From: a virus
Lineage: Duplodnaviria; Caudoviricetes
IMG/VR virus record: IMGVR_UViG_3300032103_000283
Coordinates: 1-30,113 of that record
Reading direction: 5' to 3' (one strand)
Length of the DNA stretch: 30,113 nucleotides
Every line of letters starts with the position of its first letter. The stretch's first letter is position 1. The notes beneath the pieces were generated by a model, which made no database searches, was not told where the DNA came from, and saw nothing but the letters and a program-made list of their open reading frames with translations. A program made the translations under genes and the position numbers. Shown here piece by piece: positions 7,904-29,229 of this stretch.

Positions 7904-8200
7904 ATGAGAACTTATAACAGGGGCTCTGTATTTTATATATTAGCAGAGGTGTTTAAATATGCTCCTTTTGGAAATTCAAGTTTGTATGACCCAACAGAAG
8001 TCCGTATTACAATTAGCGACCCAACAGGAGCTGATATTATTTCAGAAGAATTATTTGAAAAGACATCTATTGGACGCTATTATTACATATGTCAAACAGA
8101 AGAAAATTGGGAAGCAGGAGTATATAAAACGAAGACTATTACAAAAGATGGAGTTTTAACTGATATTACAATAGATGAATCAGGTTTTCATTTAATCTAA
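7904..8200 (+). CDS. Small Ig-like phage structural-region protein
   Basis: RBS AAGGAG. DPT.V.ITI.DP.G...G.Y.Y pattern. Overlaps the convergent gene by 9 nt. Confidence 0.65.
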   Translation: MRTYNRGSVFYILAEVFKYAPFGNSSLYDPTEVRITISDPTGADIISEELFEKTSIGRYYYICQTEENWEAGVYKTKTITKDGVLTDITIDESGFHLI

Positions 8201-9208
8201 AACTTTTTTGAAATTTGCCTTTGCTACTATTGTTTTATAAGTATTTAACGTATTTAAAATATTATTTCTTATCCAATAGTTCTTTGAGACATAATCGAAG
8301 GCATTTTTTGAAATAGTATTCATCGTTGTAGCATCAAATATTAGTTCTAATAGCGCAGTAACCCAGTTTTCTTTTTGGTTTTTAACCAAAACTCCTGCAA
8401 AAGGAGGAATGCTATTTCTATACACATCAACATCAGAAGCTATTGTTACAGCTTTTATAGCAGAATATTCACAATATTTTAAGGGACTTTTACTTTTATT
8501 AAATAGGTTATTTTCTAATGGAGCAATAGCAATATCAGCATTCAAAGAAGAAATAAAATTAACATAATCAGTAGCTGTTACTGAGCTATAAAAATAGGCT
8601 TTTCCTTTCAACTTAGGGGGAATATACCCAACAAAGATTAAATCAATTATATCTTTATGTTTCTTATATATCTCTAATAATGCACTGACAATACAATCTG
8701 AAAAATCTCCAACATGAGAAGAAGACCCACCCCAAATAATCCGCCTTTTACTTTTCTCTGCTTTCTTATTTAAAACAGGCATCTCAATATAATTAGGAAT
8801 AATATAAACATTTTTATTAAACTGTGAAACTACCTCTCGCAAATTATGAGTAGGAACAGTAACAGCAGTTGATATTCGTAACACTTCAGCAAGTCTATTA
8901 AGCCTCTCTCTATCCCAATATACTTTTGCGGGATTAGCTTCTGAGATTGACCAATAGTCATCGTCTATATCAGTAATAACAATAGTTCCTTTGCTTAATC
9001 TCTGTTTAAAATATTCTATAGCTTTATTTGTATGATGGTGTTGATTTACAATAACATCGCTTTCTTGTAAATCTTTATCTTCAAAATATGTATTATGCTT
9101 AATAATGCAAGGAATATATACATGTAAGTATTTACTTGGTAGAAACATTCTATAGTAACCTTTACCATAAACATCAATAGGTAAAAAATATATCTGCATA
9201 AAAGCCAC
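8192..9208 (-). CDS. Glycosyltransferase, GT-B fold (GT4-like)
   Basis: DIDDDYW, WGGSSSH.GD, DIAIAPLENNLFNKSKSPLKYCEY, ASDV..Y. Likely start is ATG 9199 after AAGGAAGGTG. Confidence 0.85.
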   Translation of the reverse strand: MAFMQIYFLPIDVYGKGYYRMFLPSKYLHVYIPCIIKHNTYFEDKDLQESDVIVNQHHHTNKAIEYFKQRLSKGTIVITDIDDDYWSISEANPAKVYWDRERLNRLAEVLRISTAVTVPTHNLREVVSQFNKNVYIIPNYIEMPVLNKKAEKSKRRIIWGGSSSHVGDFSDCIVSALLEIYKKHKDIIDLIFVGYIPPKLKGKAYFYSSVTATDYVNFISSLNADIAIAPLENNLFNKSKSPLKYCEYSAIKAVTIASDVDVYRNSIPPFAGVLVKNQKENWVTALLELIFDATTMNTISKNAFDYVSKNYWIRNNILNTLNTYKTIVAKANFKKVLD

Positions 9209-9215
9209 CTTCCTT

Positions 9216-9250
9216 AAAATAAATGGCAGCTACGATACTGTAGCTGCCAT
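9216..9250 (-). terminator. Intrinsic terminator
   Basis: Perfect 11-bp stem ATGGCAGCTAC/GTAGCTGCCAT (9223-9250) with a 6-nt loop, followed by TTATTTT on the - strand. Confidence 0.75.
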
Positions 9251-9257
9251 AAAAATG

Positions 9258-9329
9258 CTACTTTTTCTTCTTTTTTACTTTTGTATCAGGTTTTGCTTCA
9301 ACCTTCTTCTTTTTTTTCTTTACAGGCAT
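9258..9329 (-). CDS. 23-aa lysine-rich peptide MPVKKKKKKVEAKPDTKVKKKKK
   Basis: Consensus RBS AAGGAGGT 7 nt before the ATG, clean ORF ending in TAG, 13/23 Lys. Missed by the ORF track. Confidence 0.7.
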   Translation of the reverse strand: MPVKKKKKKVEAKPDTKVKKKKK

Positions 9330-9355
9330 ATGTATTACCTCCTTGGTTTTTTATT

Positions 9356-9781
9356 TTAACTTCCTGTGCTTCCAAATCCACCTCTATTAGTATTATGCAC
9401 TTTTTTATTTACAATATCCATCCTAACAACAGGACATAATACAATTTGCGCTATTCTTTCGCCCTTTGTGAATGTAATTGTCTCACCAATTCGACTTACA
9501 TTAGTAACAATCAACTTTATCTCCTGTCTGTAATCACTATCTATTGTAGCGGGAGAATTTTTCAACCACAAATCAGTCTTAATTGCTAAACCTGAACGAG
9601 GTCTTATTTGAAGTTCATATCCTTCAGGAATTTCAGCTTTTAATCCTGTAGGAATGAGTTCAGTTTTAAAAGGGTAAATTGTTATATCGTCTATTACAAA
9701 AATATCTGCACCTGAACTCCCTTCTGTAGCGTAAACTGGCAACTTTGCGTTTTTATGGATTAACTCGAAGATTACTTTCAT
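9356..9781 (-). CDS. dut: Trimeric dUTPase
   Basis: Motifs SSGAD, RPRSGLA, TIDSDYR, GERIAQ, RGGFGSTG. ATG 9781 follows GAGGG (the ORF track starts at 9826). Confidence 0.96.
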   Translation of the reverse strand: MKVIFELIHKNAKLPVYATEGSSGADIFVIDDITIYPFKTELIPTGLKAEIPEGYELQIRPRSGLAIKTDLWLKNSPATIDSDYRQEIKLIVTNVSRIGETITFTKGERIAQIVLCPVVRMDIVNKKVHNTNRGGFGSTGS

Positions 9782-9875
9782 TTTTCCCTCTAACACATTG
9801 CTATTTTCTTCCTGTATTTTATACACATTACCTTGATTGTTAGCTCTTCCATCTGAATAGTAATTGTTCAGTCGA

Positions 9876-10610
9876 TTACATCTCTAATAATGAAGTTATA
9901 TCATATAAGTGTAAAGGCAACTTCATTGATTTATACTCTTTTTGCTTATTATCTACCCAATAATTTGGATAAATTGGGATACCAAATTTTCCACTTAGTT
10001 CAATTAAGTTAAGCTCTTGCCATCTTTTCCCTTTCTCATAAAGGGATTTCAAAGTTTTTAATAACTGGGCATGTTTTAAGAAAACATTGTAATCTATAAC
10101 ATCGCTATCTCTGCACTCATGTAAATTTCTACCGTCAGTTGATTCAAGATATTCATGAGCTTCCCTAACATACCTACATCTTGATTTTCTCCAGATTCTA
10201 ATATGCGGGTCTAAATTTGAATTAACTATATACGTTCTTCTATTGTTAATTAACGTAATAGTAGGCAATCTTACTGCCGTTATATTTTTATCCATTATAA
10301 CATGTGCTAAGACTTCATCAATAGATTGGCTGTAAGTCTCATCAGCATCAATACCAAGAATTACACTGTTAGAAGCCAGCGATATGCAATAATTCCTCTG
10401 ATTGCAGAAGTTATCAAACTTCCGTGTCCTAAAAATAACTCGCTTATTACTAATCAGAATAAATGCTTCAATTATTTGAAGCGTATTATCAGTGCTATAG
10501 CTATCAACTATACAAATTTCGTCTATATTTTTGAGTGAGTTCAGGAATACAAGACAATACGGAAGCGTTTCTTCTTCATTATATGTTATAAGACATGCTG
10601 TTGCTCTCAT
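9876..10610 (-). CDS. Glycosyltransferase family 2 (WaaE/KdtX-like)
   Basis: LITYNEE, VDSYSTD.T, F..QRN, IDADE, HE motifs. Start placed at ATG 10610 just after a promoter (track start 10649). Confidence 0.88.
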   Translation of the reverse strand: MRATACLITYNEEETLPYCLVFLNSLKNIDEICIVDSYSTDNTLQIIEAFILISNKRVIFRTRKFDNFCNQRNYCISLASNSVILGIDADETYSQSIDEVLAHVIMDKNITAVRLPTITLINNRRTYIVNSNLDPHIRIWRKSRCRYVREAHEYLESTDGRNLHECRDSDVIDYNVFLKHAQLLKTLKSLYEKGKRWQELNLIELSGKFGIPIYPNYWVDNKQKEYKSMKLPLHLYDITSLLEM

Positions 10611-10615
10611 TTTAT

Positions 10616-10645
10616 ATTGTAACATGTTCACATTGAGCTTGTCAA
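10616..10645 (-). promoter_or_regulatory. sigma70-type promoter, probably leaderless
   Basis: TTGACA-N18-TACAAT with TGn extension, 5 nt before the ATG, no RBS. Confidence 0.7.
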
Positions 10646-10655
10646 GCATTCTTGC

Positions 10656-11051
10656 TTACTCAGATGTAAGAGAAACATTGACAATCTTTTTTTCTTTAAC
10701 AGCCTTTTTATCATAAATCTCGTTAATCTTATTTTTTATCTCAACCCGCCTATCGTTTATTTTTCTTATAGCTACTGCCCGTTTACCTATATCAGCATCA
10801 GCCATTGCAATACCTTTTCTAATATCAGCTTCTAAATTCCAAATACGTTGGTTTACTTGAGCAAGTTCACAAATAAGAGCTAATACAAAAGGCAAAGGGA
10901 AAGCGATTTTTAATCCATTCAAAATATTTTCATACTCCTGTTCGTAAAATTCGGGGTCATAGTTCATTTTCATAAGCAGAATTGTTAATCTATCAAGTAA
11001 CTCGCCTGTAGCCATTGGCATAACTTCACATTTATCGCATTTAGTTTCCAT
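10656..11051 (-). CDS. DUF6165-like helical protein
   Basis: GELLDRLTIL..K, L..VN..IW.LE.DIR, NDRR..IK.KIN, EKK pattern. Confidence 0.7.
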   Translation of the reverse strand: METKCDKCEVMPMATGELLDRLTILLMKMNYDPEFYEQEYENILNGLKIAFPLPFVLALICELAQVNQRIWNLEADIRKGIAMADADIGKRAVAIRKINDRRVEIKNKINEIYDKKAVKEKKIVNVSLTSE

Positions 11052-11052
11052 T

Positions 11053-11760
11053 CTACCCCTCCATTATTAGCTCATGAACCATTTCGGCGTATTTTTTGCC
11101 AATAAAATTCCACTCCTGCTTTCTAATATCAAGATTATCCCTTAAAATATCATAAAACTCATTTCTACTCTCAACAGATAGCTTATCCCCTGTTCCAAGA
11201 TGTTTGTGAAATATTTCTACATCTGTTTTAACTTCAAACCCAGAATATCTTGCATACGCTTCCCAACATCTATCTACAGAAGGGTTACTTCCTAATGAAA
11301 AAATCCCACCTAAAATATTATAAAGTTTTCTCGATATAGCAGGGCAAGAAAAACGAAAGCCGTTATGTTTACCTTCTTCTGGCGTTGTTATTTTTGCTGA
11401 AGCTACAGAATACGGATTATTTTTTAGAGCTTCTCTATACTTTAAATCCCAATCCTTTGACATCATTTCCATATCATCATTATATTGAATAATCACATCT
11501 CCGATTGCTGCCCTTGCACACATATCAATCATTTTCCAGTTATCAGCATAACCATTACCCCTTGAACCAATAAGATAAAAATACTTAAAAAATGATTGTT
11601 CCATAATAAAATTTAGATAATCATATACTGTTAAATCATCGCTATCAAGCCTTACTACAACTTCAACTTTAGAAGGTTCGGCGGCTTTTTCAAATAATAA
11701 ATTACAGCAATGCTTGAAATCTTCAAATCTACTTCTTGATGGCATAATAATACTTATCAA
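11053..11760 (-). CDS. Glycosyltransferase, GT-A fold (GT2-like)
   Basis: ISIIMPSRSR, LDSDD, YNDD metal motif, WD, late H. TTG start with RBS GAGGGGG. Confidence 0.8.
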   Translation of the reverse strand: MISIIMPSRSRFEDFKHCCNLLFEKAAEPSKVEVVVRLDSDDLTVYDYLNFIMEQSFFKYFYLIGSRGNGYADNWKMIDMCARAAIGDVIIQYNDDMEMMSKDWDLKYREALKNNPYSVASAKITTPEEGKHNGFRFSCPAISRKLYNILGGIFSLGSNPSVDRCWEAYARYSGFEVKTDVEIFHKHLGTGDKLSVESRNEFYDILRDNLDIRKQEWNFIGKKYAEMVHELIMEG

Positions 11761-11794
11761 GTATTCCCCCTCAAAATATTCTTCTTATTTTTTC

Positions 11795-11854
11795 TTAGAC
11801 AAGAATTTTACCTTTTACTTTACAAACAGCCTCTACTAAAAAATGTTTATTCAT
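11795..11854 (-). CDS. Possible 19-aa micro-ORF (MNKHFLVEAVCKVKGKILV)
   Basis: Strong RBS GGGGAGGT 6 nt upstream, immediately after the previous stop. Confidence 0.3.
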   Translation of the reverse strand: MNKHFLVEAVCKVKGKILV

Positions 11855-11856
11855 CT

Positions 11857-12846
11857 TTATACCTCCCCTTCAAAATACGATTCATATAGTTCAATCGCCT
11901 CTATTGATTTTATTGGTAAAAACTTTTTCTTTGTTGCTTCAATGCCTTCATCCTGTAAACTCCGTAAAAAATTATAAGTATTTTTATAAGCAAATATTTC
12001 ATTCTCTAAATCAGATATTGACGATTCATATGTCCTGTCTTGGTAATGTATAACAGACGGAGTTCCATAAATAACACTATTTGGATGTTTTGCTTGGAAT
12101 AAATAAGATGCCCATATATCATCAGCCCTACCTATAAAAGGAATATTTGCTGGAAAGTCTTTAACTATGCTTCTGTGTATAAAAGTATTCTGGGTATTTA
12201 CAGGTGTAAATTTAAACTTTCCTGTAAATAATTTAGTTTTCTGCTCAAAATAGTCAATGAACGGAGACTTCGATATTCTATCAACAGCATCAATATCAGG
12301 GTCTCCAAACCATAAGTCCTCCCTGATAAGTGGGACTATTTTGCAAATAGAGGATGTAAAGCGATAGCCATAAGAAAAACTCGAACTACTTTTAAGTTGA
12401 TATGGAAATCCCCTATGAGTAAGTAGTTCAGTAGGAAAAGTAGGGACTTGCAAATAATAAATTTCTAATGGGTTAAAACATAAATTATTTAAATTTGTTT
12501 CATACATATTAATTTCCATTTCTTTGTTCAAAATTATATCTTTTCCCCAATGCTCTAAAGGAAAATTATCATCATCAATAGAGGCAATTATTTCTCCACC
12601 ATGCTTATACCCTTCAATAAAAGCTATCATTCTACCTCGTGCAACACTACAAGCACCAATTAAATCACAGAAAGGACGATAAATATCCATTTGTTCTTCC
12701 CAAGAAATATATCGACCCTGTTCCAATTTGTAATTGGGAGTTTTTGTATCTCCGACAACAATTAAATCCCAATCGCTTAAAGCATCATATGACTTAATAG
12801 CTATAGTAGGTTTATTTATAGTCGTTGTAACAATTACGTTTTTCAC
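11857..12846 (-). CDS. RGP/STELLO (GT75/DUF288)-like glycosyltransferase or NDP-sugar mutase
   Basis: IVTTTIN.PT, LIVVGD.KTP, IDDDN.P, GDPDIDA..R, NTQNT, GRADDIW..Y motifs. Confidence 0.78.
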   Translation of the reverse strand: MKNVIVTTTINKPTIAIKSYDALSDWDLIVVGDTKTPNYKLEQGRYISWEEQMDIYRPFCDLIGACSVARGRMIAFIEGYKHGGEIIASIDDDNFPLEHWGKDIILNKEMEINMYETNLNNLCFNPLEIYYLQVPTFPTELLTHRGFPYQLKSSSSFSYGYRFTSSICKIVPLIREDLWFGDPDIDAVDRISKSPFIDYFEQKTKLFTGKFKFTPVNTQNTFIHRSIVKDFPANIPFIGRADDIWASYLFQAKHPNSVIYGTPSVIHYQDRTYESSISDLENEIFAYKNTYNFLRSLQDEGIEATKKKFLPIKSIEAIELYESYFEGEV

Positions 12847-13850
12847 ACTAAGTATAATCCCCCATTATTATATAAACGTTCAAAATTTTCATGATGGTAG
12901 AAAAACTTACAATCTACCGTTGCACAATCTCGTCTCCTAATTTTTTTAATACAATTATAATGATGCTCAGAGAACCATAATTTATCGAAATCAGCTTCAA
13001 AGATATTACCAAGTTTCATTCCGTCCCTATTATAATAATAGCAACAAACATACATATTACCAAAATAATCAAATACAGTATGAATAGGTGTAAGCCAACA
13101 CTGCGGAATTTCACCAAAAGGTTTTATCCATTTCTTTACTTTAAGTTTACCAAATGGAAGTTTTGATAAAATAGAATCTTCATATATTTTTTCTTTAAGT
13201 GATAGCTCTTCAGGCTCATGTCTTAATGCTTTAAATGTTACTTGTTTTACTTTTAATTCATCAGCTAATACTAAAGCACTTAAATAATGAGTTACACCTC
13301 GCAGTGATTTTCCGACAGAAAATTTCAGAGTAAAATCTTCCATTCGTTTTGCAAGTTCTTCTGCCGCTAACAAAGCATCTACCCAATCAGCTATTCCTAC
13401 TTTTTTATAATTACAATATGTTGCAGCATTAGACGCTTCAAGAGAAATACGAACATATGTAGCATTTTTAGATAAGAAATCAACAAATTCTTGACCGTTA
13501 TTTATTATATTAGTCCCATTTGTAATAAGCCCAAAATAACAACCATTCATTCGTATTAACTTGAGCAGCTCATGCAGATAAGGAAGCATAGTTGGCTCTC
13601 CACCTCCAGCAAAATCAAAAAACTTAACTCCTTTTGAAATTAAAAGTTCTACAAGGGCAAAATGATTTTCTTTGCTCATTATCTTTCCATTATGAAGAGA
13701 GCTATATGCACATCCATTACATTTTTGATTACATGTATAACTTGTATGAAAATCTACAAAATGAGGCAAAGGAAAAGAACGCCAGTTTTTTTCCTCTAAA
13801 TCTTGTTTATATTTAATAATTTCATTCGCTCTGAAAATAATATTACTCAT
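12843..13850 (-). CDS. Radical SAM enzyme with SPASM/twitch domain
   Basis: CNQKCNGC (CxxxCxxC), GGGEPT, ITNG, RISL. C-terminal C...G..YVCC...GNI...W...C...C. Confidence 0.92.
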   Translation of the reverse strand: MSNIIFRANEIIKYKQDLEEKNWRSFPLPHFVDFHTSYTCNQKCNGCAYSSLHNGKIMSKENHFALVELLISKGVKFFDFAGGGEPTMLPYLHELLKLIRMNGCYFGLITNGTNIINNGQEFVDFLSKNATYVRISLEASNAATYCNYKKVGIADWVDALLAAEELAKRMEDFTLKFSVGKSLRGVTHYLSALVLADELKVKQVTFKALRHEPEELSLKEKIYEDSILSKLPFGKLKVKKWIKPFGEIPQCWLTPIHTVFDYFGNMYVCCYYYNRDGMKLGNIFEADFDKLWFSEHHYNCIKKIRRRDCATVDCKFFYHHENFERLYNNGGLYLV

Positions 13851-14626
13851 GTTCTTACCTTTTCGATATAAGTAAACATGTCGTTAACTAATTGGAGGTT
13901 TATAGGTTTAAAGTTTTCAAAATCTTTAGGTGTTATGTCTTCTACTCTACTATTATCATGGTCAAAATGATAGTGCTCATAAATTTGAGTTACTTCTGTT
14001 TTTTGTGTTAACCTTTCAAGTAAGTCGTTATCCAAATGCCAATTACCATGCACCATTTTATATCCACCAACCTTATCATACAAAGTTTTCGTCATTACAC
14101 AAAAATCACCAGCAGCCGTATGTGAGGTAGCAAGTGTCATAAAAGTATTTTGTTCTGCTTCGTAGCATAAATCATTATTTCTTCGTGTGCAATACTCTCT
14201 GAATATATCGTATCTTATTGCCCTTGATACCTTTCCTTTCAGCGAACTATCAATAACAGACAGAAAGTTACGGTTTGGAAAGATATTATCAGGGTTTGCA
14301 ACAATAATATGCTCATTCTTAGCAGAGTATATTCCAACATGTTTTGCTATGTATTCATAAAATGGAAGTTTAATATTAGAATCTTCTTTTAATAACTGAT
14401 GATATTTTTTAGTAATTGTAATTATTCTAACTTTTGGGAATTTACGCACATGTTCAATTATTCTTAACTTATCAGGAGCAAACTCAACAACAATAAGTTC
14501 AGTTATAGCTTTTATTTGCTCTACAGAAAAACAAGTAACTTCAAGCCGTCTCATAGTAAAATTATCTACATCTGCACATTTACCACCATAACTATCGTTT
14601 CTTGTTGCTATTACCATTGAGAACAT
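13847..14626 (-). CDS. Glycosyltransferase, GT-A fold
   Basis: VIATRNDSYGG, LIVVEF, EYIAKHVGI..A, NPDNIF, AAGDF, GGY, YHFDH. RBS AGGAG. Confidence 0.75.
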   Translation of the reverse strand: MFSMVIATRNDSYGGKCADVDNFTMRRLEVTCFSVEQIKAITELIVVEFAPDKLRIIEHVRKFPKVRIITITKKYHQLLKEDSNIKLPFYEYIAKHVGIYSAKNEHIIVANPDNIFPNRNFLSVIDSSLKGKVSRAIRYDIFREYCTRRNNDLCYEAEQNTFMTLATSHTAAGDFCVMTKTLYDKVGGYKMVHGNWHLDNDLLERLTQKTEVTQIYEHYHFDHDNSRVEDITPKDFENFKPINLQLVNDMFTYIEKVRT

Positions 14627-14724
14627 TTGTCTTTTGTCTCCTATTACTTGTAAGCGTTATTTGCTCGATTTTACATATCTGTGTTTTTTTTTCTCTGTTT
14701 GTCTGCCACACTGAACACAAACTT

Positions 14725-16269
14725 TCAACCTATGATTTCTTTTACGCTTTTGTAAACTTCATCAACAGTTATCGTATTAACACACTCAAAATTATTTGTG
14801 CAATGCACACTATAAGTTTGAACAAGATGAATACATCCTTGACATTTAATATCTGCAACTACTGGTTTTAGAATTTTAGAAGATAAATTAGCTACAAGTT
14901 CAGGTTTACATACCGTATATAACACAACTGCTGGTGTATCAACAGCTTGTGCTGCATGGGCTAAAAATCCATCATGTCCAACATAAATATCAGCAAAAAG
15001 AAGACTTGCTGCTGCTTCAGTTATACTTAATACGTTTAGCAATGACCAATCATATTCAACATAAATAGGTTTTTTAGTTTTTCCTACTAAAACTACCTTA
15101 ATTCCATCTGCTCGTAATTTTTTACTGAGTTTCTCATAATTACTATGATGCCATTGCTTTGCAGTCCATGTATCAGATAAGTCTAAAAAAGCTACTTTAT
15201 TTTCAAAAAAACTTTTATCTGGTAAATAATTTTGTAATATATTTTCAATCGCTGACTTAGGTGTATATAAAATACCTCTCTTTGATTTTACTTCAACATC
15301 AGCAACCTTAGCATAAGCATCAATTATATGTATTGAAAAATCTTTTTCATAGGCATAATCTAAATCTATTAATCTATCGAAGTAGCAAGGAAAACCGATA
15401 GGTAATTCAATATCTATAAGAGGATAACCAACAACTCCTTTTGCTTCAGTTAAAAGAATAATACTTGTATCTGGATATTTATTTCTTAATTGTTCAAGGA
15501 TAGGTGTAACAAGTAAAACATCCCCTAAACTTCCTGTTCTCTTAACTGCTATAGTTTCCCCAAACTTTTTCCCAACAATATAGCTATACCATTTTTTGAG
15601 AAATTTATGTTTATTAATTTCTCTTATAGCCCCAATTCCAATTACTTTTACTGAAGATTGTGCTCTATGGTGTTTCCATTTTAAAGAAACAGAAGAAAGC
15701 GAAAATCCCTGTTTTTTTAACCTAAATGATAAATCTGTATCTTCAAAATAACCTAACTTATAAGTTTCTGAATCGAAAAGCTCTTTTAAAAACAATTCAG
15801 TTCTCATAACAAAACAAGAACCTTCGCAATATTCAGGTTCGTCAATATCGACTCCAGCACCATCTCCGTATATATCAACAACATTACATTGACCGTTTTT
15901 TATACTTACTTGAGCAACGTTTGTGTTATTTATTAAAGGATTACACAATTTATGAACCCATTCTTCATAAAACTCGATATCGTCATTTAATACAGCAAAA
16001 TAAGGTTGAGTTGCATGTAAAACATTTAAGTTATGTGCTTCTCCGAACCCTACATTTTCATTTAAACAACTTTTATTAATAAGAATATGAATATGAGGAA
16101 TATATACTTTTGCAAGTCTTAATACTTCTTGTGTAATACTTTCATTTAAAGGAGAATTATTAAAAATAATAACCTGTTTTAATCCAGCATTATATTTTCT
16201 AAATGACTTAAATAAATTTGCAATCATTTGCAAATTTGGTTCATAAATAGCGATGCTTGCTGTAAGCAC
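14725..16269 (-). CDS. Bifunctional glycosyltransferase: N-terminal GT2 + C-terminal GT9 (heptosyltransferase-like)
   Basis: GT2: NVGFGEAHN, LNDD, GSCF, YFEDTDLS.R. GT9: RTGSLGDVLL.TP...LR.KYP, KQW, YVGHDG..AH.A.A...P.VVLY, C.GC...C...ITVDEV. RBS AAGGAGG. Confidence 0.9.
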   Translation of the reverse strand: MLTASIAIYEPNLQMIANLFKSFRKYNAGLKQVIIFNNSPLNESITQEVLRLAKVYIPHIHILINKSCLNENVGFGEAHNLNVLHATQPYFAVLNDDIEFYEEWVHKLCNPLINNTNVAQVSIKNGQCNVVDIYGDGAGVDIDEPEYCEGSCFVMRTELFLKELFDSETYKLGYFEDTDLSFRLKKQGFSLSSVSLKWKHHRAQSSVKVIGIGAIREINKHKFLKKWYSYIVGKKFGETIAVKRTGSLGDVLLVTPILEQLRNKYPDTSIILLTEAKGVVGYPLIDIELPIGFPCYFDRLIDLDYAYEKDFSIHIIDAYAKVADVEVKSKRGILYTPKSAIENILQNYLPDKSFFENKVAFLDLSDTWTAKQWHHSNYEKLSKKLRADGIKVVLVGKTKKPIYVEYDWSLLNVLSITEAAASLLFADIYVGHDGFLAHAAQAVDTPAVVLYTVCKPELVANLSSKILKPVVADIKCQGCIHLVQTYSVHCTNNFECVNTITVDEVYKSVKEIIG

Positions 16270-16296
16270 TGTAAATCCTCCTTTTAGGGCAGGTTA

Positions 16297-16408
16297 TGAC
16301 ATTCTCTGTCCACTAAACTGCTTTAGCAGTTATAGTAGTAGTCTCCTTGACATGAATACGACATATTGGAAGTGTTTGCTAATGACAGTATTGACCACCA
16401 AAGGCTAA
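16297..16408 (-). mobile_element. IS200/IS605 TnpB right-end (reRNA)-like remnant, unit 2
   Basis: The - strand ends ...GGAGACTACTACTATAACTGCTAAAGCAGTTTAGTGGACAGAGAATGTCA, a subterminal hairpin plus GAGAATGTCA terminus resembling TnpB right ends. No tnpB ORF. Confidence 0.5.
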
Positions 16409-16550
16409 GTGAACTACTCACAACTGACGCTGATGCTTCGCTGCAACCTGAGCATTTCTACTTAGGTTTTTTGAACCTACCAATTCCCTATTTTTAGTCT
16501 TCACTCGACCTCCAACCAATTCTGTTATTCTGAAATCTTCCAATTTCAGA
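16409..16550 (-). mobile_element. IS200/IS605 TnpB right-end (reRNA)-like remnant, unit 1
   Basis: The - strand ends GAAGC...TCAGTTGTGAGTAGTTCAC. Upstream hairpins ACCTAAGTA-GAAA-TGCTCAGGT and TCTGAAAT-N6-ATTTCAGA. The 5' boundary is uncertain. Confidence 0.5.
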
Positions 16551-16973
16551 CATTTTTGTTACCTTGTCATTTAAATACTTATTAGTAAGTATTTCTAAAA
16601 ATTCTTTCTCCCAATTATTACCACCAATATATAACAATATATGTAATATAACATCCGCAAGAGAGCTAAGATAAACAAGTGGATATTCACCTTCTCTAAC
16701 TGAAAAAGGAAATGAATCGTCTGTGTAATCAAAAGTTTTTTCATCGAGCATTGCATAGAACTTACAGAAGTTCTGTATTCCCTCTACAATTCTATCTGTA
16801 TATGGGTCTTTACTTTTTGAAAGCCATAAAGAGGTATTTGACAATTCTTTCATTATGAGCATGATATGTGTCATATGATACTCAGGACGAAGCCCTTGCC
16901 TTTTAGCGTAATCGCCATATTCAGTAAGTAAAGTCTCAAGCTCCATTAGCTTTAAATTTCTCCCAAACTCCAT
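16494..16973 (-). CDS. Degenerate MazG-like (all-alpha NTP pyrophosphohydrolase-like) protein
   Basis: LIMKELS and SSLADVILHIL resemble MazG E..E and ELAD helices with acidic residues lost. Alternative start ATG 16946. Confidence 0.45.
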   Translation of the reverse strand: MEFGRNLKLMELETLLTEYGDYAKRQGLRPEYHMTHIMLIMKELSNTSLWLSKSKDPYTDRIVEGIQNFCKFYAMLDEKTFDYTDDSFPFSVREGEYPLVYLSSLADVILHILLYIGGNNWEKEFLEILTNKYLNDKVTKMSEIGRFQNNRIGWRSSED

Positions 16974-17133
16974 ATGCTATTAAAATTTGTCTTAGCTGGC
17001 TTCTATCAGATAAACATAATCGTTCAGCGATTATCGAACTACTTAAATTATATTTTTCTCTAAGTTCAAGTGCTTTACTTGCAATATATTGTTTCCTTTC
17101 GTCTGTAAGTTTTTTCTTATATAAATCTGACAT
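16936..17133 (-). CDS. Small helix-turn-helix DNA-binding protein
   Basis: LSSSIIAERLCLSDRSQLRQIL HTH pattern. RBS AAGGGGG. Confidence 0.6.
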   Translation of the reverse strand: MSDLYKKKLTDERKQYIASKALELREKYNLSSSIIAERLCLSDRSQLRQILIAYGVWEKFKANGA

Positions 17134-17145
17134 TATCCCCCCTTC

Positions 17146-19608
17146 TTAATCTTTAACTTCTTTAAGCTCGTTCCAATTAGTTCCTTGTTTTCTATCACTT
17201 TCAATCTTATATCCAACAAGTATATTAAAATATGTCTTAATATACTCTTTACTTCTATCACATAAACACTCTTTTAAAAGTAAAGCAGCGTCATCAAATA
17301 CATCTTCTTTAGCCCTAAACATACAAGCATCATGTGTAAAAAGCATTGATTTTACTTTATTTTTAAGTTTTCTATTTGTCTTAATTTCTTGATTAAATAA
17401 GAAAAAGCCGATAATGCCTAAATCAGAAGAAAAAGAAGAAACAGGAAAATTTATACACTGCCTAATAGCTTTGCTTCGATATTTATACTCGTTTGAATCA
17501 ATATCAGGTAGCCTTCTCTTTCTTCCTAATGGACTTCTTACATATTTATGTTTAATTAAAAAGTGTTCTTGATACGCATAAAAAGCAGGGAGTTTATAGT
17601 ATCCGTTAGGGTTTGCAAAAAAAGCTGTTCTTGTTGCTTCTGCTTCTTTTAGTGTCATATCAACATCATAATCTGATTTTACATATTGTTTTAACCCTTT
17701 TGCAGATAAACCATACATAAGACCAAAATTAATACCCTTTGCTTTTTGCCTCATGTCTTTTGTAACCTTATCAAGAGGAATATTATGATTAATAATAGAT
17801 GCTGTTTGTCTATGTAAATCTATCCCATTATTTACAGCATTTAATATATTCCTATCCCCTGCTAACCAACCCATTATACGCAATTCAGATTGTGATAAAT
17901 CACGAACCCCTAAAACCCAACCATCTTCAACAATAAAACACTTACGTATTAAATAAGCGTAAGGGTGTCTTACAGGAAGCTGATGTAAAGGAGGGTTATA
18001 AGTTGCTGTTCTTCCTGAGACAGTCTTATATAATAATGTTGAAGTATGGGCTAATCCATCTTCATGAATTTCTTTGTGTAATGTATTTAAGTATCCTGTT
18101 TTTATTTTTAGAAGTTTTTTCCAATCTAAAAATTTAGTTATAAATTTATGAGACTTAAGAGCCCTTAAATGTTCTTCATTTATTTGCGGTTCTTTTGTTT
18201 TAGCTGTGATATAAAATGGGTCTGGTTTTCTTTTTAACCCTTTTTCAGCATAAAACAAAATATCCTTAACAAATGCAGGGCGAGTAAGACTTAAATTGTC
18301 AGTATATTTTTCTTTAATAGACTCATGGACATAAGAAAGACATTCATCATGGAGTGATGTAAGCAATGTATCAGCTTCATTATTAGCTTCAGTAAGCATA
18401 TTTTTATCAATTAAGCATCCATTCATATAAGTATCAAAAAATAGCTCTTGTGCAGGTAAAATAAAATTTGTATAGTAATTAGTAATTTTTGTATCTTTTA
18501 TAAGTTCTTTTGAGAGAGTTCTAAAACATCGCATAGTAGCATCAGCATCAACACCAGAATATCTAATTAGAGTTTCTTCGTTTGCATCTTGTAAGTTTGT
18601 TCTATAACCTTCAGCAAGTTCTTTTATATTTTTTAAAGGTGTATATGTATTTGCAATTTCTTCAAGGCTATATGAATAATAATTTTCATCTATAAGATGC
18701 GCCATTAAAGCAACATCGTGTAATTTCCCTTTTAACTCAAATTTCAAACTTGCTTTAGTTACAGCTTCTTCAAACGGGCGAGACATTACAACTTTAGCTA
18801 TTTTAGGATTTTTAAGAAGTTCAATAACACTACTATCAAACGGAGGCAAGAAAATTTGCGCTTCTCCTTCTTTATGAGACACAGAGAGCGATAAGATTTT
18901 AAAGGTTGATTTGTTAAAAGGACTTAAACCAGTCGTTTCATAATCTATCGCAACAACTTTACAGTCAGGTGGGACTATAACTTTACTTGCTTTTTTATAG
19001 TCTTCTGAGTTTATCACAAGCTCACTAAAATCATTTTCAAAGAGCTGACTTATGATTTTAAAATCATTAAACAAGAGTTTTTCAGTCATAGACATTAAAT
19101 TATAAGGTTGATATGGATATTCTGCTGAGACACCTTGACGTAGAATATAAGACGGATGAACCGTAATTACAACTGGACAATTAAATTCGTCTGAAAAGAT
19201 AACTTTTCCTCTGTGTTGCATTATCTTCTGTTTTCCAAGAAGTTGTTTTAGTGCATATGCTCCTAAAGAAACAATTACTTTTGGTTTTATTGAATGAATT
19301 GCCTTTTCTAAAAAACTCCTGCAATGTTTCATTGCAGTATTTATATTTTTAGTCGAATCTATGTTTTTTTCAATCATACAACGACAGCTATTTGCAAGAA
19401 AAACTGTGCTGCGGGGTATCTTAATAGTTTCGAGAAGTTTATTAAGTAATTTTCCACTTCTTCCAACAAAAGGCATTCGTGGAGATGCTCCTATTTCATC
19501 AACCCCTGGACTTTCCCCTACTATAAGACATTCAGCTTCTAATGAACCAGCATATGGAACTTCTTCTTTTTCAAAATATGGACATGCTTTACAATATTCT
19601 TTTTTCAT
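17146..19608 (-). CDS. polA: Family A DNA polymerase with N-terminal family-4 uracil-DNA glycosylase domain and 3'-5' exonuclease
   Basis: UDG: CxxC, GESPG..E, PFVG.SG, N..RC, HPSY. Exonuclease: DYETTGL, Y...DA. Polymerase: DLSQSELR, D.H, RQKAK.INFGLMYG, HD. Start ATG 19608 (track 19623). Confidence 0.95.
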   Translation of the reverse strand: MKKEYCKACPYFEKEEVPYAGSLEAECLIVGESPGVDEIGASPRMPFVGRSGKLLNKLLETIKIPRSTVFLANSCRCMIEKNIDSTKNINTAMKHCRSFLEKAIHSIKPKVIVSLGAYALKQLLGKQKIMQHRGKVIFSDEFNCPVVITVHPSYILRQGVSAEYPYQPYNLMSMTEKLLFNDFKIISQLFENDFSELVINSEDYKKASKVIVPPDCKVVAIDYETTGLSPFNKSTFKILSLSVSHKEGEAQIFLPPFDSSVIELLKNPKIAKVVMSRPFEEAVTKASLKFELKGKLHDVALMAHLIDENYYSYSLEEIANTYTPLKNIKELAEGYRTNLQDANEETLIRYSGVDADATMRCFRTLSKELIKDTKITNYYTNFILPAQELFFDTYMNGCLIDKNMLTEANNEADTLLTSLHDECLSYVHESIKEKYTDNLSLTRPAFVKDILFYAEKGLKRKPDPFYITAKTKEPQINEEHLRALKSHKFITKFLDWKKLLKIKTGYLNTLHKEIHEDGLAHTSTLLYKTVSGRTATYNPPLHQLPVRHPYAYLIRKCFIVEDGWVLGVRDLSQSELRIMGWLAGDRNILNAVNNGIDLHRQTASIINHNIPLDKVTKDMRQKAKGINFGLMYGLSAKGLKQYVKSDYDVDMTLKEAEATRTAFFANPNGYYKLPAFYAYQEHFLIKHKYVRSPLGRKRRLPDIDSNEYKYRSKAIRQCINFPVSSFSSDLGIIGFFLFNQEIKTNRKLKNKVKSMLFTHDACMFRAKEDVFDDAALLLKECLCDRSKEYIKTYFNILVGYKIESDRKQGTNWNELKEVKD

Positions 19609-19613
19609 ATATA

Positions 19614-19643
19614 ATTCTAACATATTTAAATATAGTTTGTCAA
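19614..19643 (-). promoter_or_regulatory. sigma70-type promoter for polA, probably leaderless
   Basis: TTGACA-N18-TAGAAT with TGn extension, 5 nt before ATG 19608, no RBS. Confidence 0.7.
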
Positions 19644-20014
19644 GTTATATTTTCCCAAGAGCTTAAAGTTATTTCTTCAACTTTAGATGTCCATCTTAGT
19701 GCTTTTGAATTTCTATGCAGCTTTTGTTTTCCCCAACTATGAATTTCAATTTTTCCCCCGCATTTTAACCATGTAGGGGCGTATTCATTATCAAGGATTT
19801 TTTTCCTATGTTCAGCATGACCAGACCTTGCACAACATTGCACCCCAATAACCCCTCGTGATGGGTCTAAGGCTATAACATCAATAAAATGAAAAAGGTC
19901 TTTTCTTCTCCCTACAAATGAATTCCAATGCTCTGCAATATCACAGAGTATCCCTTGTTCTTTTAAATATTTTAATGTTCGGGCTGTTGGAGATATACTA
20001 CTTTTTGTCGGCAT
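19640..20014 (-). CDS. PD-(D/E)xK-fold nuclease, Holliday-junction-resolvase-like
   Basis: SPT.RTL..L..QG, DLF.FID.IAL, GVQ, W...GG.IEIH.W pattern. RBS GAGG. Confidence 0.65.
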   Translation of the reverse strand: MPTKSSISPTARTLKYLKEQGILCDIAEHWNSFVGRRKDLFHFIDVIALDPSRGVIGVQCCARSGHAEHRKKILDNEYAPTWLKCGGKIEIHSWGKQKLHRNSKALRWTSKVEEITLSSWENIT

Positions 20015-20864
20015 TCTTTTTAACCTCTAAACATATTTTTCTGACTTGACAATCTCGTGCAGGTATCGATAAGTCAGAAGAACACAACTCTCTTTTTGGT
20101 ATTTGTTTTGTAGATAGATATTTTCTTACTTTTTGTAATTTAGTAGCAATTTCAATCATAAACTTTTTTGATAAGGGCATTTCAAATACTTTATCGAGTG
20201 GGTCAACTACAGCTTCTTTAGGTATATAAATAACAGTTCCAGATTTATTATTAAATTTAAGATTAAGCTGTTTTTCTATATCTTTGATAGACCTATTTAA
20301 TAATAGAGTATCAGGATGATTAATAAGGTAAAGATATGTTGAAAGTTGATACTGATGTTGTAATTGTGGCTCAGTTAGCTTTTTAAATTCATCAGCTTTA
20401 ATACTTTTTATCTCGCAAGATTCAATAGACCCTGCAGCACAAACTACTTGTGCGTCTATATTCCCTTTAATACAAACATCATCCCCAAGTGAAAGTTCAA
20501 GAGGGGTGTCAATATATCGAGGATGTGATGCAGAGCTACATTTAGGACATATTATAGTATGAAATCCATAAATTGTTGTTCCGCAGCAGGTATATCTCCA
20601 TGTTCCAATAAGGCTCCCAGTCTTATGTAACCTACTTACAGTAATGTCTTGTATTTTTCGTCCGATTTCAAAAGTTAAAGCAAGCCCAGTTCCTATATAT
20701 TCCGTAACATGAAACGGGACTTTATTTTCTCTGCATAATGCAAACTTACGAGGACACAAAGAAAAAATATCAGACGCATGAATAGCTGTATTAAATTCAG
20801 GACGACCTGTTTTTTCACCTCTATATGCTGTTTTTAGCAATGTCTTAACATAGTTTTTACCCAA
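19998..20864 (-). CDS. Cas4-like PD-(D/E)xK exonuclease
   Basis: HAS....CPRK, GNID, EIKS, QL..Y, three C-terminal Cys (Fe-S staple pattern), plus an internal CC..CPKC Zn ribbon. Confidence 0.78.
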   Translation of the reverse strand: MGKNYVKTLLKTAYRGEKTGRPEFNTAIHASDIFSLCPRKFALCRENKVPFHVTEYIGTGLALTFEIGRKIQDITVSRLHKTGSLIGTWRYTCCGTTIYGFHTIICPKCSSASHPRYIDTPLELSLGDDVCIKGNIDAQVVCAAGSIESCEIKSIKADEFKKLTEPQLQHQYQLSTYLYLINHPDTLLLNRSIKDIEKQLNLKFNNKSGTVIYIPKEAVVDPLDKVFEMPLSKKFMIEIATKLQKVRKYLSTKQIPKRELCSSDLSIPARDCQVRKICLEVKKNADKK

Positions 20865-21380
20865 TTACCAAGCCCCCCTTTTCATAAAAGCAATAAATTC
20901 GCTATCTATTAAATAAAATTTAAACGGATAAAAGTAAGTAAATTGCTGAACTTTTTTTCTTGCCCCTAACTCCCATAATCCTTTTATCTCAAAGAAAATT
21001 AATGAATCATGGATAAGAAAATCAGGAACATAGCTTTTATTTTCCGACAGAGTAAATAAATATGGCTCATATTCTATTTTAGGTAAATGTTTATCATGTT
21101 CTTGATATATTTTATACAATGCACTAATAAATTCTAATTCAAGGGCACTTCTAAAATCATAAATAGATTTGTTCGGTTTTCCAAAAGGTATTCCAAGAAG
21201 TTTTATTTCTTGTTCTGTATAAGTTGTCGAATTTGAATCATTTATTAAATTATATAAACAATCAGTTGAACACACACAAGGAGCTAAATCAATATAAATT
21301 CCCTTTACATAGCTATTTTTATATACATTAGAACATACACTACAACGACTCGAATTCAGTTTCGGTTTCAATTTCTGCAT
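20865..21380 (-). CDS. PD-(D/E)xK endonuclease with N-terminal Cys-rich motif
   Basis: FRS..E, YEP..F, YVPDF, EIKG.W. CxxC...CS..C N-terminus. Start ATG 21380 after GGGAG (track 21413). Confidence 0.75.
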   Translation of the reverse strand: MQKLKPKLNSSRCSVCSNVYKNSYVKGIYIDLAPCVCSTDCLYNLINDSNSTTYTEQEIKLLGIPFGKPNKSIYDFRSALELEFISALYKIYQEHDKHLPKIEYEPYLFTLSENKSYVPDFLIHDSLIFFEIKGLWELGARKKVQQFTYFYPFKFYLIDSEFIAFMKRGAW

Positions 21381-22440
21381 CGTCAAATATTCTCCCAACT
21401 TTATTATCATCAAGAATTGCCTGTCTTACAGCATTACATAAAATATTATCATTTTCAATCGCCGTTGTTGCAGCTACTAAGTTAACATAAACTGAGCCAA
21501 GACACTCCCATTTAGTTCCTTTCTTTGTAAGAATATTATGTTTCCGTGCTTTTTCAATAACATCTTTTACATCAATAATATCTCCAATTTTATGGGATTT
21601 CGTCTCTTTTATATAAGTTTTATATTCTCCTGTCAATTTTGGAAGTCCAACTCTATTTTTTTCCAATACAAATGCGTGTGTGCATTTTGTAGTCATATCT
21701 CCTGATTTCTCATAGCCTTTATTATAGAACTTAATATCCATAGATACTACATGACTAACCATATAACCACATGGGGGTGTTGTTGTTGGTTGAAATGAAC
21801 GGGTTCCAATACTTGCTCTTGCTTGATTAATTAAAATCGTTGTTAACGGATTTTGCTCTGCTTTCTTTTGAGCTATTATTGGAATTATCTTTCTAAGCAG
21901 CTTGTTAACAAGTTTTGTTTGTTGTCCTACAAAATCATCTGTAGCAGAAGCTGTAGCTTCTGCTACAGGAATTATCATTGCAATGCTATCTATAACAAGT
22001 AAACCGATGTCTTCTGCTTTAATAAGTTCAACAATCATATCTACACCCTGCTCACCATAGTCAGGGTCAATTAAATAAAATTCATCAACATCTACAAGAA
22101 AATTCTTTGCCCAGTCATAATCAAAAGCATGTTCAAAATCTATCCATAAAACTTTTTTCCGCTTTGCTTTATTTTCTTCAATTTCTTTTTGCTTTTGTTG
22201 ATATCTTCCAGCAATCCTTAGAGCATGAGTTGTTTTACCACTTGAGCGGACTCCTTGAAATTGTGTAATCCGCCCCATTGGAATTCCACCTAATGTATAA
22301 TAATCAAATAGAAATATACCTGACTCAATACGTGGGACTACAAGTTTTGTCAGGTGATTTCCAGTAAAAATTAGATTTGGTTTTTTTCCATCTAACTTTA
22401 ACGCTAACTCTTCAATAAGTATTGTTTGTTTAGCCGCCAC
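21340..22440 (-). CDS. recA: RecA/UvsX-like recombinase
   Basis: GGIP.GRI, G..SSGKTT, D.EHA.D, VIDSIA, INQ.R, KNRVG.P. Confidence 0.93.
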   Translation of the reverse strand: MAAKQTILIEELALKLDGKKPNLIFTGNHLTKLVVPRIESGIFLFDYYTLGGIPMGRITQFQGVRSSGKTTHALRIAGRYQQKQKEIEENKAKRKKVLWIDFEHAFDYDWAKNFLVDVDEFYLIDPDYGEQGVDMIVELIKAEDIGLLVIDSIAMIIPVAEATASATDDFVGQQTKLVNKLLRKIIPIIAQKKAEQNPLTTILINQARASIGTRSFQPTTTPPCGYMVSHVVSMDIKFYNKGYEKSGDMTTKCTHAFVLEKNRVGLPKLTGEYKTYIKETKSHKIGDIIDVKDVIEKARKHNILTKKGTKWECLGSVYVNLVAATTAIENDNILCNAVRQAILDDNKVGRIFDDAEIETETEFESL

Positions 22441-22642
22441 TCGATACTCTCCGTAATCTTAAAACTTCAGCTTCCATTTCTTTTGTAACTTCAGCTTTTA
22501 ATGCTTTTATAGCTTTTGCTTTATTTTTTTTATCAGTTTGAATTGTCATCCCAAAATTAACACGTAAACTTTCATAATTACCAGCATTAAGTGTAGTTCC
22601 AAGTTCATATGTTACAGAAATAACATCATTTGTTATTTTCAT
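22430..22642 (-). CDS. Conserved small phage protein (T.N.GNYES.RV motif)
   Basis: RBS GGAGGT before ATG 22642. The track start at 22681 lies inside the RNA element. Confidence 0.7.
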   Translation of the reverse strand: MKITNDVISVTYELGTTLNAGNYESLRVNFGMTIQTDKKNKAKAIKALKAEVTKEMEAEVLRLRRVSSGG

Positions 22643-22659
22643 TTTATACCTCCAATGTA

Positions 22660-22863
22660 GATATTCCATCTTGAACCGCAAGGTAAGGTTAGAGAGGAAT
22701 ACATCTCCTTTCTATCAACATAGCTATAGAGCTTGCGGAATACCCTATAGTGTCTTGACCCACACAACTTCTGTTCAGCATTACCCGTTTACTCCCTTGT
22801 CAACCAAACTTGTCTTCACAAACCCTTACTATAATCCAGAGGATTTAGTGGGAGGTGATTGAC
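22660..22863 (-). ncRNA. Orphan IscB-type omegaRNA / HEARO-like RNA (non-autonomous IS200/IS605 derivative)
   Basis: 5' GTCAATCA pairs with TGGTTGAC and encloses two hairpins. Then CAGAAGTT and the hairpin CTATAGGGT-ATTCCGCAA-GCTCTATAG, whose CCGCAAG complements downstream CTTGCGG (pseudoknot). No iscB ORF follows. Confidence 0.72.
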
Positions 22864-23350
22864 TTTTTGTCTCTTTTGGAGGCAGTTTGTTAGGGTCATA
22901 TTTTGTATCCCAAACAGAAGAAAGAATTTTATACAAATCATCATATGTATATTTTGTATAATCGCCTGCATCAATTCTTGTTACTACTTCTTTTAAATAC
23001 TGTGCATTAGAATATGTGTAGTATTTTTTTACACTATTTCCAACAGTAAGATGTTTAGGTAAATAACCCCTAACTCTCCATCTGTAAACTACCGTATAGT
23101 TTCTCCCTATAAATTTTGCTACTTGCTTTAAAAGTAAAAGTAATTCTTGTCTTCCATCTATTTCTACAACAATAGGTTTTTTCACATTTGCCATCCTCTT
23201 CAATACATAAGCTATTCGTGAACTTATTTTTATTGTGCGTCTATAAGCTGCATCTGTCTCATACCTTGCTCGTTTTTTCCTTTGCAAACGGGACTTATTC
23301 ATTGTATAGTATTGATGCTGATATTGTTTTGCTGTAAGTTTAGCTGCCAT
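22829..23350 (-). CDS. MerR-like HTH DNA-binding protein with basic N-terminus
   Basis: LKQVAKFIGRNYTVVYRWRVRGYLP MerR-type HTH. RBS GGGGAGGTG. The last 11 codons are supplied by the RNA element. Confidence 0.7.
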   Translation of the reverse strand: MAAKLTAKQYQHQYYTMNKSRLQRKKRARYETDAAYRRTIKISSRIAYVLKRMANVKKPIVVEIDGRQELLLLLKQVAKFIGRNYTVVYRWRVRGYLPKHLTVGNSVKKYYTYSNAQYLKEVVTRIDAGDYTKYTYDDLYKILSSVWDTKYDPNKLPPKETKSQSPPTKSSGL

Positions 23351-28704: not shown

Positions 28705-29229
28705 TTAATTTGAGTTGCATTTCATGTGTTTTTGTCTGAAGTTTTTAGCAGCAATCGCAGCTACTATCTCTGAATCAAAATAACCTACATGATAGTTTTT
28801 TTTGTGTATCTTTACTTGCGCTCTCCATTTACGCTTATCTTTACAATAAGATACCCCCCTAAAAGTAGATGAAGTTGGCTTTCCATGCAGAACAGGCATA
28901 CCTTTAGGGTTTTTATTTTGAGCATTATACTGTAAAGAAACAATGCGCATGTTCTTCCTTCTGCAATCAAGTTTATCTCTGTTTATATGGTCAACTGTTA
29001 AATGCTTAGGAGGACGCAGAAGAAAACGGTGCAACTGTATCCATATTCTGCTTCCATCTTGAATATTACGGTAAGTAGTAAATAAATAACCTCTCCCAAC
29101 ATACCACTTGTGCATTTTTACAAGCTCGAAGTCAGATAAATCTACTATAGCGTCAGCAATAAGTTCCTGTTGTTTAGTATATACATAGATATGTCCAACT
29201 CCATCTTTAATTTCAAACTTATTTCCCAT
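28705..29229 (-). CDS. HNH homing endonuclease with C-terminal AP2 domain
   Basis: LHRFLL, VDHINRDKLD.RR.N.R, SS.FRGVS....KWRAQ......HVGYFDSE..AA.A. Confidence 0.92.
   Translation of the reverse strand: MGNKFEIKDGVGHIYVYTKQQELIADAIVDLSDFELVKMHKWYVGRGYLFTTYRNIQDGSRIWIQLHRFLLRPPKHLTVDHINRDKLDCRRKNMRIVSLQYNAQNKNPKGMPVLHGKPTSSTFRGVSYCKDKRKWRAQVKIHKKNYHVGYFDSEIVAAIAAKNFRQKHMKCNSN

Follow-up and report, generated by a model that had tools for sequence, protein, structure and literature searches.

Two IS200/IS605-type elements, one IscB-type and one TnpB-type, probably decaying in a phage replication operon

The DNA analyzed here, referred to below as the window, is the whole of the linear virus record IMGVR_UViG_3300032103_000283 (30,113 nt; Duplodnaviria, Caudoviricetes), which has an estimated completeness of 37%, so that about 63% of the phage genome is unseen. 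Between about 29,200 and 8,200, its minus strand carries a packed operon that encodes DnaB, a primase, a helicase, RecA/UvsX, nucleases and a uracil-DNA glycosylase-PolA (UDG-PolA) polymerase, followed by glycosyltransferases, a radical SAM protein and a dUTPase. Two short elements in this operon, A (16296..16485) and B (22643..22863), share a hairpin close to one terminus. Our analysis suggests that they are in all likelihood two independent, decaying insertions, which carry right ends of the insertion sequence (IS) type IS200/IS605, no longer have their nuclease genes and have survived because they are nearly harmless. We file B as an IscB-derived palindrome-associated transposable element (PATE) and A as a one-ended TnpB-type remnant.

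The shared hairpin and its right-end family

The window contains just two matches to the motif CACTAAA-N6-16-TTATAGT, at 16311-16336 (+) and 22828-22850 (-), against an expectation of 0.01, and none of 100 shuffles of the window reaches two matches, for a motif that was picked after the fact. The inner sequences of both hairpins fold back on themselves. A preliminary description of this DNA had quoted both elements, correctly as to sequence and coordinates, and the common arms and self-complementary inner sequences that it pointed out are real by this count and by folding. It had also remarked on the lack of tnpA, tnpB and iscB, which is borne out by a six-frame scan of the contig without any match to RRXRR/IscB, TnpB or Y1 TnpA; the absence holds for the contig only, because the contig is about 37% complete. 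A contig from the sequencing run has the same sequence as the window over both elements, and no second copy or excised form of either was seen among that run's contigs at 85% and 80% likeness, which does not prove absence.

The bare motif, proposed earlier as a genome-wide search probe, is not diagnostic. In IMG/VR, 120 loci with this motif (among about 3,300 estimated in the collection) gave no IS terminus with a base stem on inspection, and as family members they were rejected as chance-like. A pattern anchored on the terminus, in contrast, gave 37 loci in metagenomes, 20 of which have an inner stem of at least 3 bp (L189 among these probably by chance), against 6/120 of the bare-motif controls; L199 and L212 are family members by eye. 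The ends in this family are typed as CCACTAAA...TTATAGT. Fifteen candidate open reading frames (ORFs) adjoin them; the ORF of L198 and the second ORF of L208 were dropped as apparent host genes, and a Pfam scan of the other 13 identifies 10 TnpB ORFs at nine loci, two Y1 TnpAs and one RRXRR/IscB. HEARO RNAs score above the gathering score in L196, L187 and L186, with an adjoining iscB in L196 only. The same arms, with covarying inner stems, thus flank intact TnpB, TnpA+TnpB and IscB elements as well as protein-less copies, both in metagenomes and in a bacterial metagenome-assembled genome (MAG). A B-specific pattern matches 30 loci in GTDB: 26 are chance-like and were set aside, and four are IS-like ends at unrelated sites, all in one Blastocatellia MAG. 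A fifth copy was found there; the five lie at different sites in a genome that encodes IscB, TnpB and Y1 TnpA. In five further genomes the family pattern gave one chance match.

In an alignment of 22 ends, where the arm sequences are fixed by the search pattern, 98.4% of the cells are paired and 27 cells have changed on both sides, mostly in the apical stem (0/500 shuffles). A family end model scores B at 34.4 bits (E 5.6e-8) and A at 25.8 bits (E 1.8e-5), the lowest score in the family, with the next window match at 9.0; two held-out full-length members score 66.3 (L158) and 62.8 bits (L207). A guide rule, by which the tetranucleotide at the cleavage site can be predicted from the four bases that precede the hairpin, is described for ISGst elements (PMC10055086), and 20/24 ends follow it, where 2,000 permutations give a mean of 12.9 and a maximum of 18. 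IscB and TnpB elements are known to have termini in common, with opposite gene orientation (PMC4810608). The family model, the covariation, the guide rule and the adjoining TnpB, TnpA and IscB ORFs all indicate that both hairpins are right ends of a widespread IS200/IS605 subfamily, one IscB-type and one TnpB-type. The earlier suggestion that both are substrates of a related Y1 transposase gains support from this membership in a family with intact TnpB, TnpA+TnpB and IscB elements. The family defines a recognizable right-end subfamily common to IscB, TnpB and protein-less elements, and the hairpin that A and B have in common reflects the use of one transposase-binding end by IscB and TnpB elements alike.

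Some other members are of interest in their own right. L190:1146-1202 is an element of about 55 nt, in which terminus-like sequences flank a single hairpin, and is a candidate terminal-only PATE. L210:727-3038 contains tandem tnpB ORFs (417 and 355 amino acids) that end in one right end of this subfamily. L186:3001-3353 and L187:1090-1317 are full-length HEARO RNAs (93 and 96 bits) without iscB; the former has an insertion of about 110 nt, and the latter, which contains a duplicated internal repeat, lies at the ATG of an ORF that, judging by its motif, we take to resemble thymidylate kinase.

Element B and its target site

Element B is organized as follows:

22643..22863, minus strand: element B, a 221-bp two-ended, internally deleted IscB-type IS200/IS605 element, PATE-like
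22816..22863, minus strand: right end, equivalent to the 5' guide-adaptor hairpin of the omegaRNA, with the shared arms; transposase strand plus; 34.4 bits, E 5.6e-8
22723..22815, minus strand: retained omegaRNA core, with closing strand GGTTGAC at 22805-22799 and a conserved hairpin at 22753-22723
22689..22721, minus strand: putative iscB 3'-end remnant MLIERRCIPL*, overlapping the start of the left end; compared with the tails of intact IscBs; nhmmer E 0.16
22643..22700, minus strand: left end, an imperfect hairpin with DNA guide GATA at 22660-22663 (+) and an outward GGAGG at 22653-22649; identified from sequence, fold and comparison by eye
22639..22642, minus strand: target ATGA, the start codon of the downstream gene (TCAT on the transposase strand)

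B resembles the ISC/IscB elements and their omegaRNA (HEARO, RF02033; PMC4810608, PMC10055086) in its GTCAA start, the omegaRNA 5' helices, the iscB-like tail, the N|ATGA target and its orientation, sense to the upstream gene. It differs in that the 3' third of the RNA and the iscB ORF are deleted, and in its score: the sole Rfam match in the window is a weak HEARO at 22863-22657 (23.6 bits, E 0.41), far below the gathering score of 83 and the 93-121 bits of relatives (L196, 120.6). A full HEARO covariance match was not obtained in B, where the long 3' stem-loop, closing strand and pseudoknot partner are not recognizable. B aligns with the intact IscB omegaRNAs of L196, L217 and L216 as far as the hairpin end at 22723, where the alignment stops, so that the 5' two-thirds of the omegaRNA are kept and the 3' third is missing.

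The rest of B fits the tail of an iscB gene and a left end. In three of the six intact elements examined, IscB ends in LLIERRKG (L220), LLTERRAV (L217) or LLCERRKE (L219), with TTCCTC, a hairpin and ATGA next in order; the window has a single match to GAAAGGAG-N3-14-TTCCTC, at 22712, and an nhmmer profile of IscB ends ranks the B tail first in the window, weakly. The Rfam alignment would instead make this part a degenerate omegaRNA 3' end, a reading that we rejected since iscB tails and left ends fit better. The left-end guide GATA predicts TCAT, that is, the ATGA at 22642-22639, as in L187 (by eye), and the right-end pair CAAA/TGAC matches the guide rule at two of three positions. From the conserved omegaRNA hairpin to the left end, five of six intact IscB elements measure 1,327-1,443 nt and the sixth 1,679 nt, against about 25 nt in B; one internal deletion of about 1.3 kb would therefore suffice to produce the anatomy of B.

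The two phage genes that flank B are:

22829..23350, minus strand: upstream gene (173 amino acids, transcription-regulator-like by PHROG), the final 11 residues of which are B-derived
22430..22642, minus strand: downstream gene (70 amino acids), which directly precedes recA/uvsX

The placement at a gene junction that was described earlier holds only in part, as B is not simply intergenic: its first 35 nt provide the last 11 codons and the stop of ORF 22829-23350. Each flanking gene has one relative, P0002 and P0006, both on a contig of 5,935 nt that is presumably the same one. The proteins of this related phage are 76-78% identical, and P0002 (76%, 167 amino acids) diverges where B begins. For the tail of P0002 and the start of P0006 to be encoded by overlapping DNA, the overlap must be 4 or 17 nt, and 0/30 control pairings permit any overlap of 14-40 nt. 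Removing B precisely at N|ATGA yields a 167-residue protein and the 17-nt overlap, and by this agreement B is most likely a lineage-specific insertion, which the relative would lack. A boundary at 22655 also yields 167 residues, but violates the guide rule and the 17-nt overlap, and was rejected. A RecA search found a single relative at 35%, and alignment of the flanking genes found none in JGI metagenomes.

N|ATGA is the published ISC target (PMC4810608), and an ORF of at least 100 codons begins at the target codon in six of nine related elements checked. A sense bias of iscB elements is also published (PMC10055086). The position of B at a start codon and its sense orientation follow from the ATGA target and this bias, and hence need no special function. 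The GGAGG in the left end lies 6 nt ahead of the next start codon. A GGAG/GAGG run is found at a similar place in the left end of 5/11 relatives with an ATGA or GTGA target (L216, L152, L154, L155 and L211, three of them from one genome); some family elements that insert at a start codon may thus supply a new ribosome-binding site in place of the old one. In the open literature, we found no paper on an IS605 insertion at an ATGA start codon with a ribosome-binding site.

PATEs in Haloquadratum (PMC3119063) and among the ISGst1-5 derivatives of G. stearothermophilus (PMC10055086) likewise have no ORF, have subterminal imperfect hairpins and no terminal inverted repeats, and arise by internal deletion; one Haloquadratum PATE has C-terminal coding remnants (PMC3119063). 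B has no transposon protein gene (in the contig), and has both ends and a target without duplication, with weak profile support. In contrast to the published PATEs, A and B are phage-borne, single copy each and degenerate, A has no recognizable left end, and both are known from sequence alone.

Element A and the rest of the window

Element A and its neighbors are arranged as follows:

16296..16485, minus strand: element A, a TnpB-type remnant about 190 bp long, with an approximate left boundary
16296..16348, minus strand: distal right end with the shared arms; guide GAGA, predicted cleavage after TCAT (16296); 25.8 bits, E 1.8e-5
16349..16408, minus strand: body of about 60 nt, putative TnpB omegaRNA scaffold (16408 to the end, 113 nt), weakly supported (z -0.75)
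16409..16468, minus strand: probably another TnpB-type right end, on the inner side (GAAG, short hairpin, 6 nt and TCAC, 16439-16409; a hairpin at 16468-16445 precedes)
16494..16973, minus strand: upstream phage ORF, 159 amino acids, function unknown
14725..16269, minus strand: downstream glycosyltransferase (GT2+GT9), with its own AGGAGG outside element A

On the minus strand the right end of A lies on the 3' side, which is the TnpB arrangement, and the pair GAGA/TCAT fits the guide rule; cleavage is placed one base beyond the end given in the preliminary description. Both RNAs had been taken to lie in sense orientation, which stands for A only if its RNA is taken to be TnpB-type and encoded on the minus strand, with the right end on the 3' side; the plus strand quoted for A is antisense to this would-be RNA. 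The right end of A forms the 3' side of an operon-sense RNA, as in the IS605/IS1341 TnpB elements and their omegaRNA/right-end RNA (ISDra2, PMC10097598), and its type is shared with the TnpB loci L193-L195, L207 and L213. A differs from these elements in having no tnpB or left end and probably two tandem right ends, with a scaffold whose integrity is putative. No match to the left-end models was found in A, which has one end where a complete PATE has two and is classed here as a one-ended TnpB-type remnant.

The inner right end is read from the sequence, and the family end model gives no match there; no homologue of this inner part turned up in the pattern search or in 401 + 401 genomes sampled from two phyla. 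It could instead be degenerate tnpB coding sequence, a reading in keeping with a CxxC in one frame of A. The A region folds no better than shuffles (z -0.75), Rfam gives no meaningful match in the body, and the scaffold pairings seen by eye in the 113-nt segment are weak.

Elsewhere in the window, an HNH-AP2 homing endonuclease gene at 28705-29229 (-) is another mobile insertion in the same operon. Directly behind the UDG-PolA polymerase, 8192-16269 (-) encodes several glycosyltransferases, a radical SAM/SPASM protein and a dUTPase, possibly a pathway for DNA or virion modification. Among probable virion genes, 4667-7903 (+) encodes a protein of 1,078 amino acids that combines a polysaccharide deacetylase domain with a long region of low-complexity repeats. 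Exact matches of 19-20 nt to one 77.5-kb contig (run X1) at 17109-17127 and 18124-18143, and a 35-nt match with five mismatches to a 734-nt contig at 17345-17379, could reflect a related phage or be spacer-like. At the poly-T tract at position 14683 the contig from the sequencing run has two extra T relative to the window, and a short ORF could lie unnoticed in the intergenic gap at 14626-14725, or the assembly may have slipped there.

Probable decay and the alternatives

Both hairpins appear weakened. Their DNA folding energies are -6.3 (A) and -4.7 kcal/mol (B), against -7.7 to -17.8 in 23 genuine relatives, and the C-G pairs that they have lost are nearly invariant in the family. A change to TTATAGTA is common to both; it either characterizes a local subfamily or arose twice, as separate transitions. 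A promoter and terminator scan found nothing above chance on the sense strand of A or B. No copies were found in other phages: element-specific patterns in IMG/VR gave 0, 0 and 0 matches, two chance matches in coding regions and one further chance match, and blastn of A and B against phages and plasmids gave nothing, or four short matches at E 0.2-0.8.

These observations fit a simple history. For B, a Y1 transposase would have pasted a host IscB element at N|ATGA, at a start codon inside a 17-nt gene overlap; the upstream gene would thereby acquire the 11 residues that now end its product, and translation of the downstream gene would rely on the GGAGG within the left end. A single deletion of about 1.3 kb would then have taken almost the whole of iscB together with the last third of the omegaRNA. 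Element A would go back to a TnpB-type insertion between two genes, with a second right end placed in tandem and with the loss of tnpB and of the left end.

Several points weigh against this history of two decaying insertions. The family was collected with a pattern derived from the window, so that arm identity and model scores are partly circular, and the lower hairpin stability may stem in part from an AT-rich lineage. The empty site of B rests on the proteins of one relative, where a generic 4-nt overlap fits too. A mixed left-end model (14 ends) misses B, and an IscB-only model finds it at E 0.16; the one guide-rule mismatch of B suits decay, yet weakens the boundary call. For A, the distal 113 nt are close in length to the 116-nt scaffold of ISDra2 TnpB (PMC10097598), and by this analogy A may be loadable by TnpB in trans. 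Finally, P0004, a relative of the gene upstream of A (84% identical), ends in WRELDKN where the window has WRSSED and then RELV in another frame, which leaves the presence of A in that relative ambiguous.

The preliminary description had raised the retention of guides, decoys or domesticated structures. A retained guide or decoy system is not favored by our results: B has no omegaRNA 3' third and appears absent from one relative, the hairpins are weakened, and other phages yielded no copies. The broadest proposal, which we regard as unlikely, is that A, as a TnpB-loadable scaffold, and B, as a truncated IscB scaffold, would engage host OMEGA (obligate mobile element-guided activity) nucleases in trans from the replication-operon transcript, as guide or decoy, and that the outward ribosome-binding site in the end family would make start-codon insertions self-repairing. 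B itself is unlikely to guide, by analogy with OrufIscB, in which only about 17-21 nt can be trimmed from the omegaRNA 3' end and small internal-hairpin cuts lower activity (PMC13180657); little trimming is tolerated there, and B has lost its 3' third.

It is quite unlikely, too, that A is a selfish guide, with a TnpB of the host or of the unseen part of the phage binding the scaffold of about 113 nt, using the 3' flank as guide and cutting relatives with an empty site. The operon-sense orientation, the self-consistent right end under the guide rule, the scaffold length near the 116 nt of ISDra2 and a candidate pseudoknot partner some 100 nt ahead of the end (by eye; one Watson-Crick and two wobble pairs) are all in its favor, as is the report that omegaRNAs, which would require TnpB in trans, are often encoded by PATEs (PMC10055086). 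However, neither a left end nor a transposon-adjacent motif is recognized, the family score and folding of A are poor, the contig holds no second perfect match to the 12-nt flank that would be the guide target, and no cognate TnpB was found.

Domestication in cis is less probable still: the B left end would serve as ribosome-binding site of the gene before recA, and the hairpins would tune the processing or stability of the replication-operon mRNA. The insertion did displace the original upstream sequence and placed GGAGG ahead of the ATG, and similar runs occur in the relatives listed above, but only a short GGAGG is needed, so that the insertion is tolerable rather than selected; moreover, 6/11 relatives have no such run, B is apparently absent in one related phage, and the sense strand has no promoter or terminator match.

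A host IscB or TnpB would target empty sites only, which leaves little for a decoy RNA to protect against. That A and B titrate such nucleases is the least credible alternative: two different OMEGA-type scaffolds do lie in one operon, a truncated scaffold might in principle bind without guiding, and decoy RNAs against Cas effectors are known from phages (PMC10651486 and two 2026 preprints), but phage collections show no conservation, B ends in an iscB tail and left end as a deletion product would, internal-hairpin truncations already lower IscB activity and 3' trimming is limited (PMC13180657), and no dedicated promoter was found. Like RNA anti-CRISPRs (Racrs, PMC10651486), A and B are phage-borne, RNA-like fragments of an RNA-guided system without its effector; they differ in having transposon ends and a target site, in lacking conservation and in being described purely from their DNA. 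We found no paper on a TnpB decoy RNA in a phage or transposon context in the open literature.

PATEs, the common IscB/TnpB ends, the ATGA targets and the sense bias are already published. What A and B add is a small, clean example of OMEGA element decay in a phage, with an exact start-codon insertion and an inferred empty site. If A or B were truly to bind a host TnpB or IscB, they would form an RNA-only link between phages and transposon nucleases.

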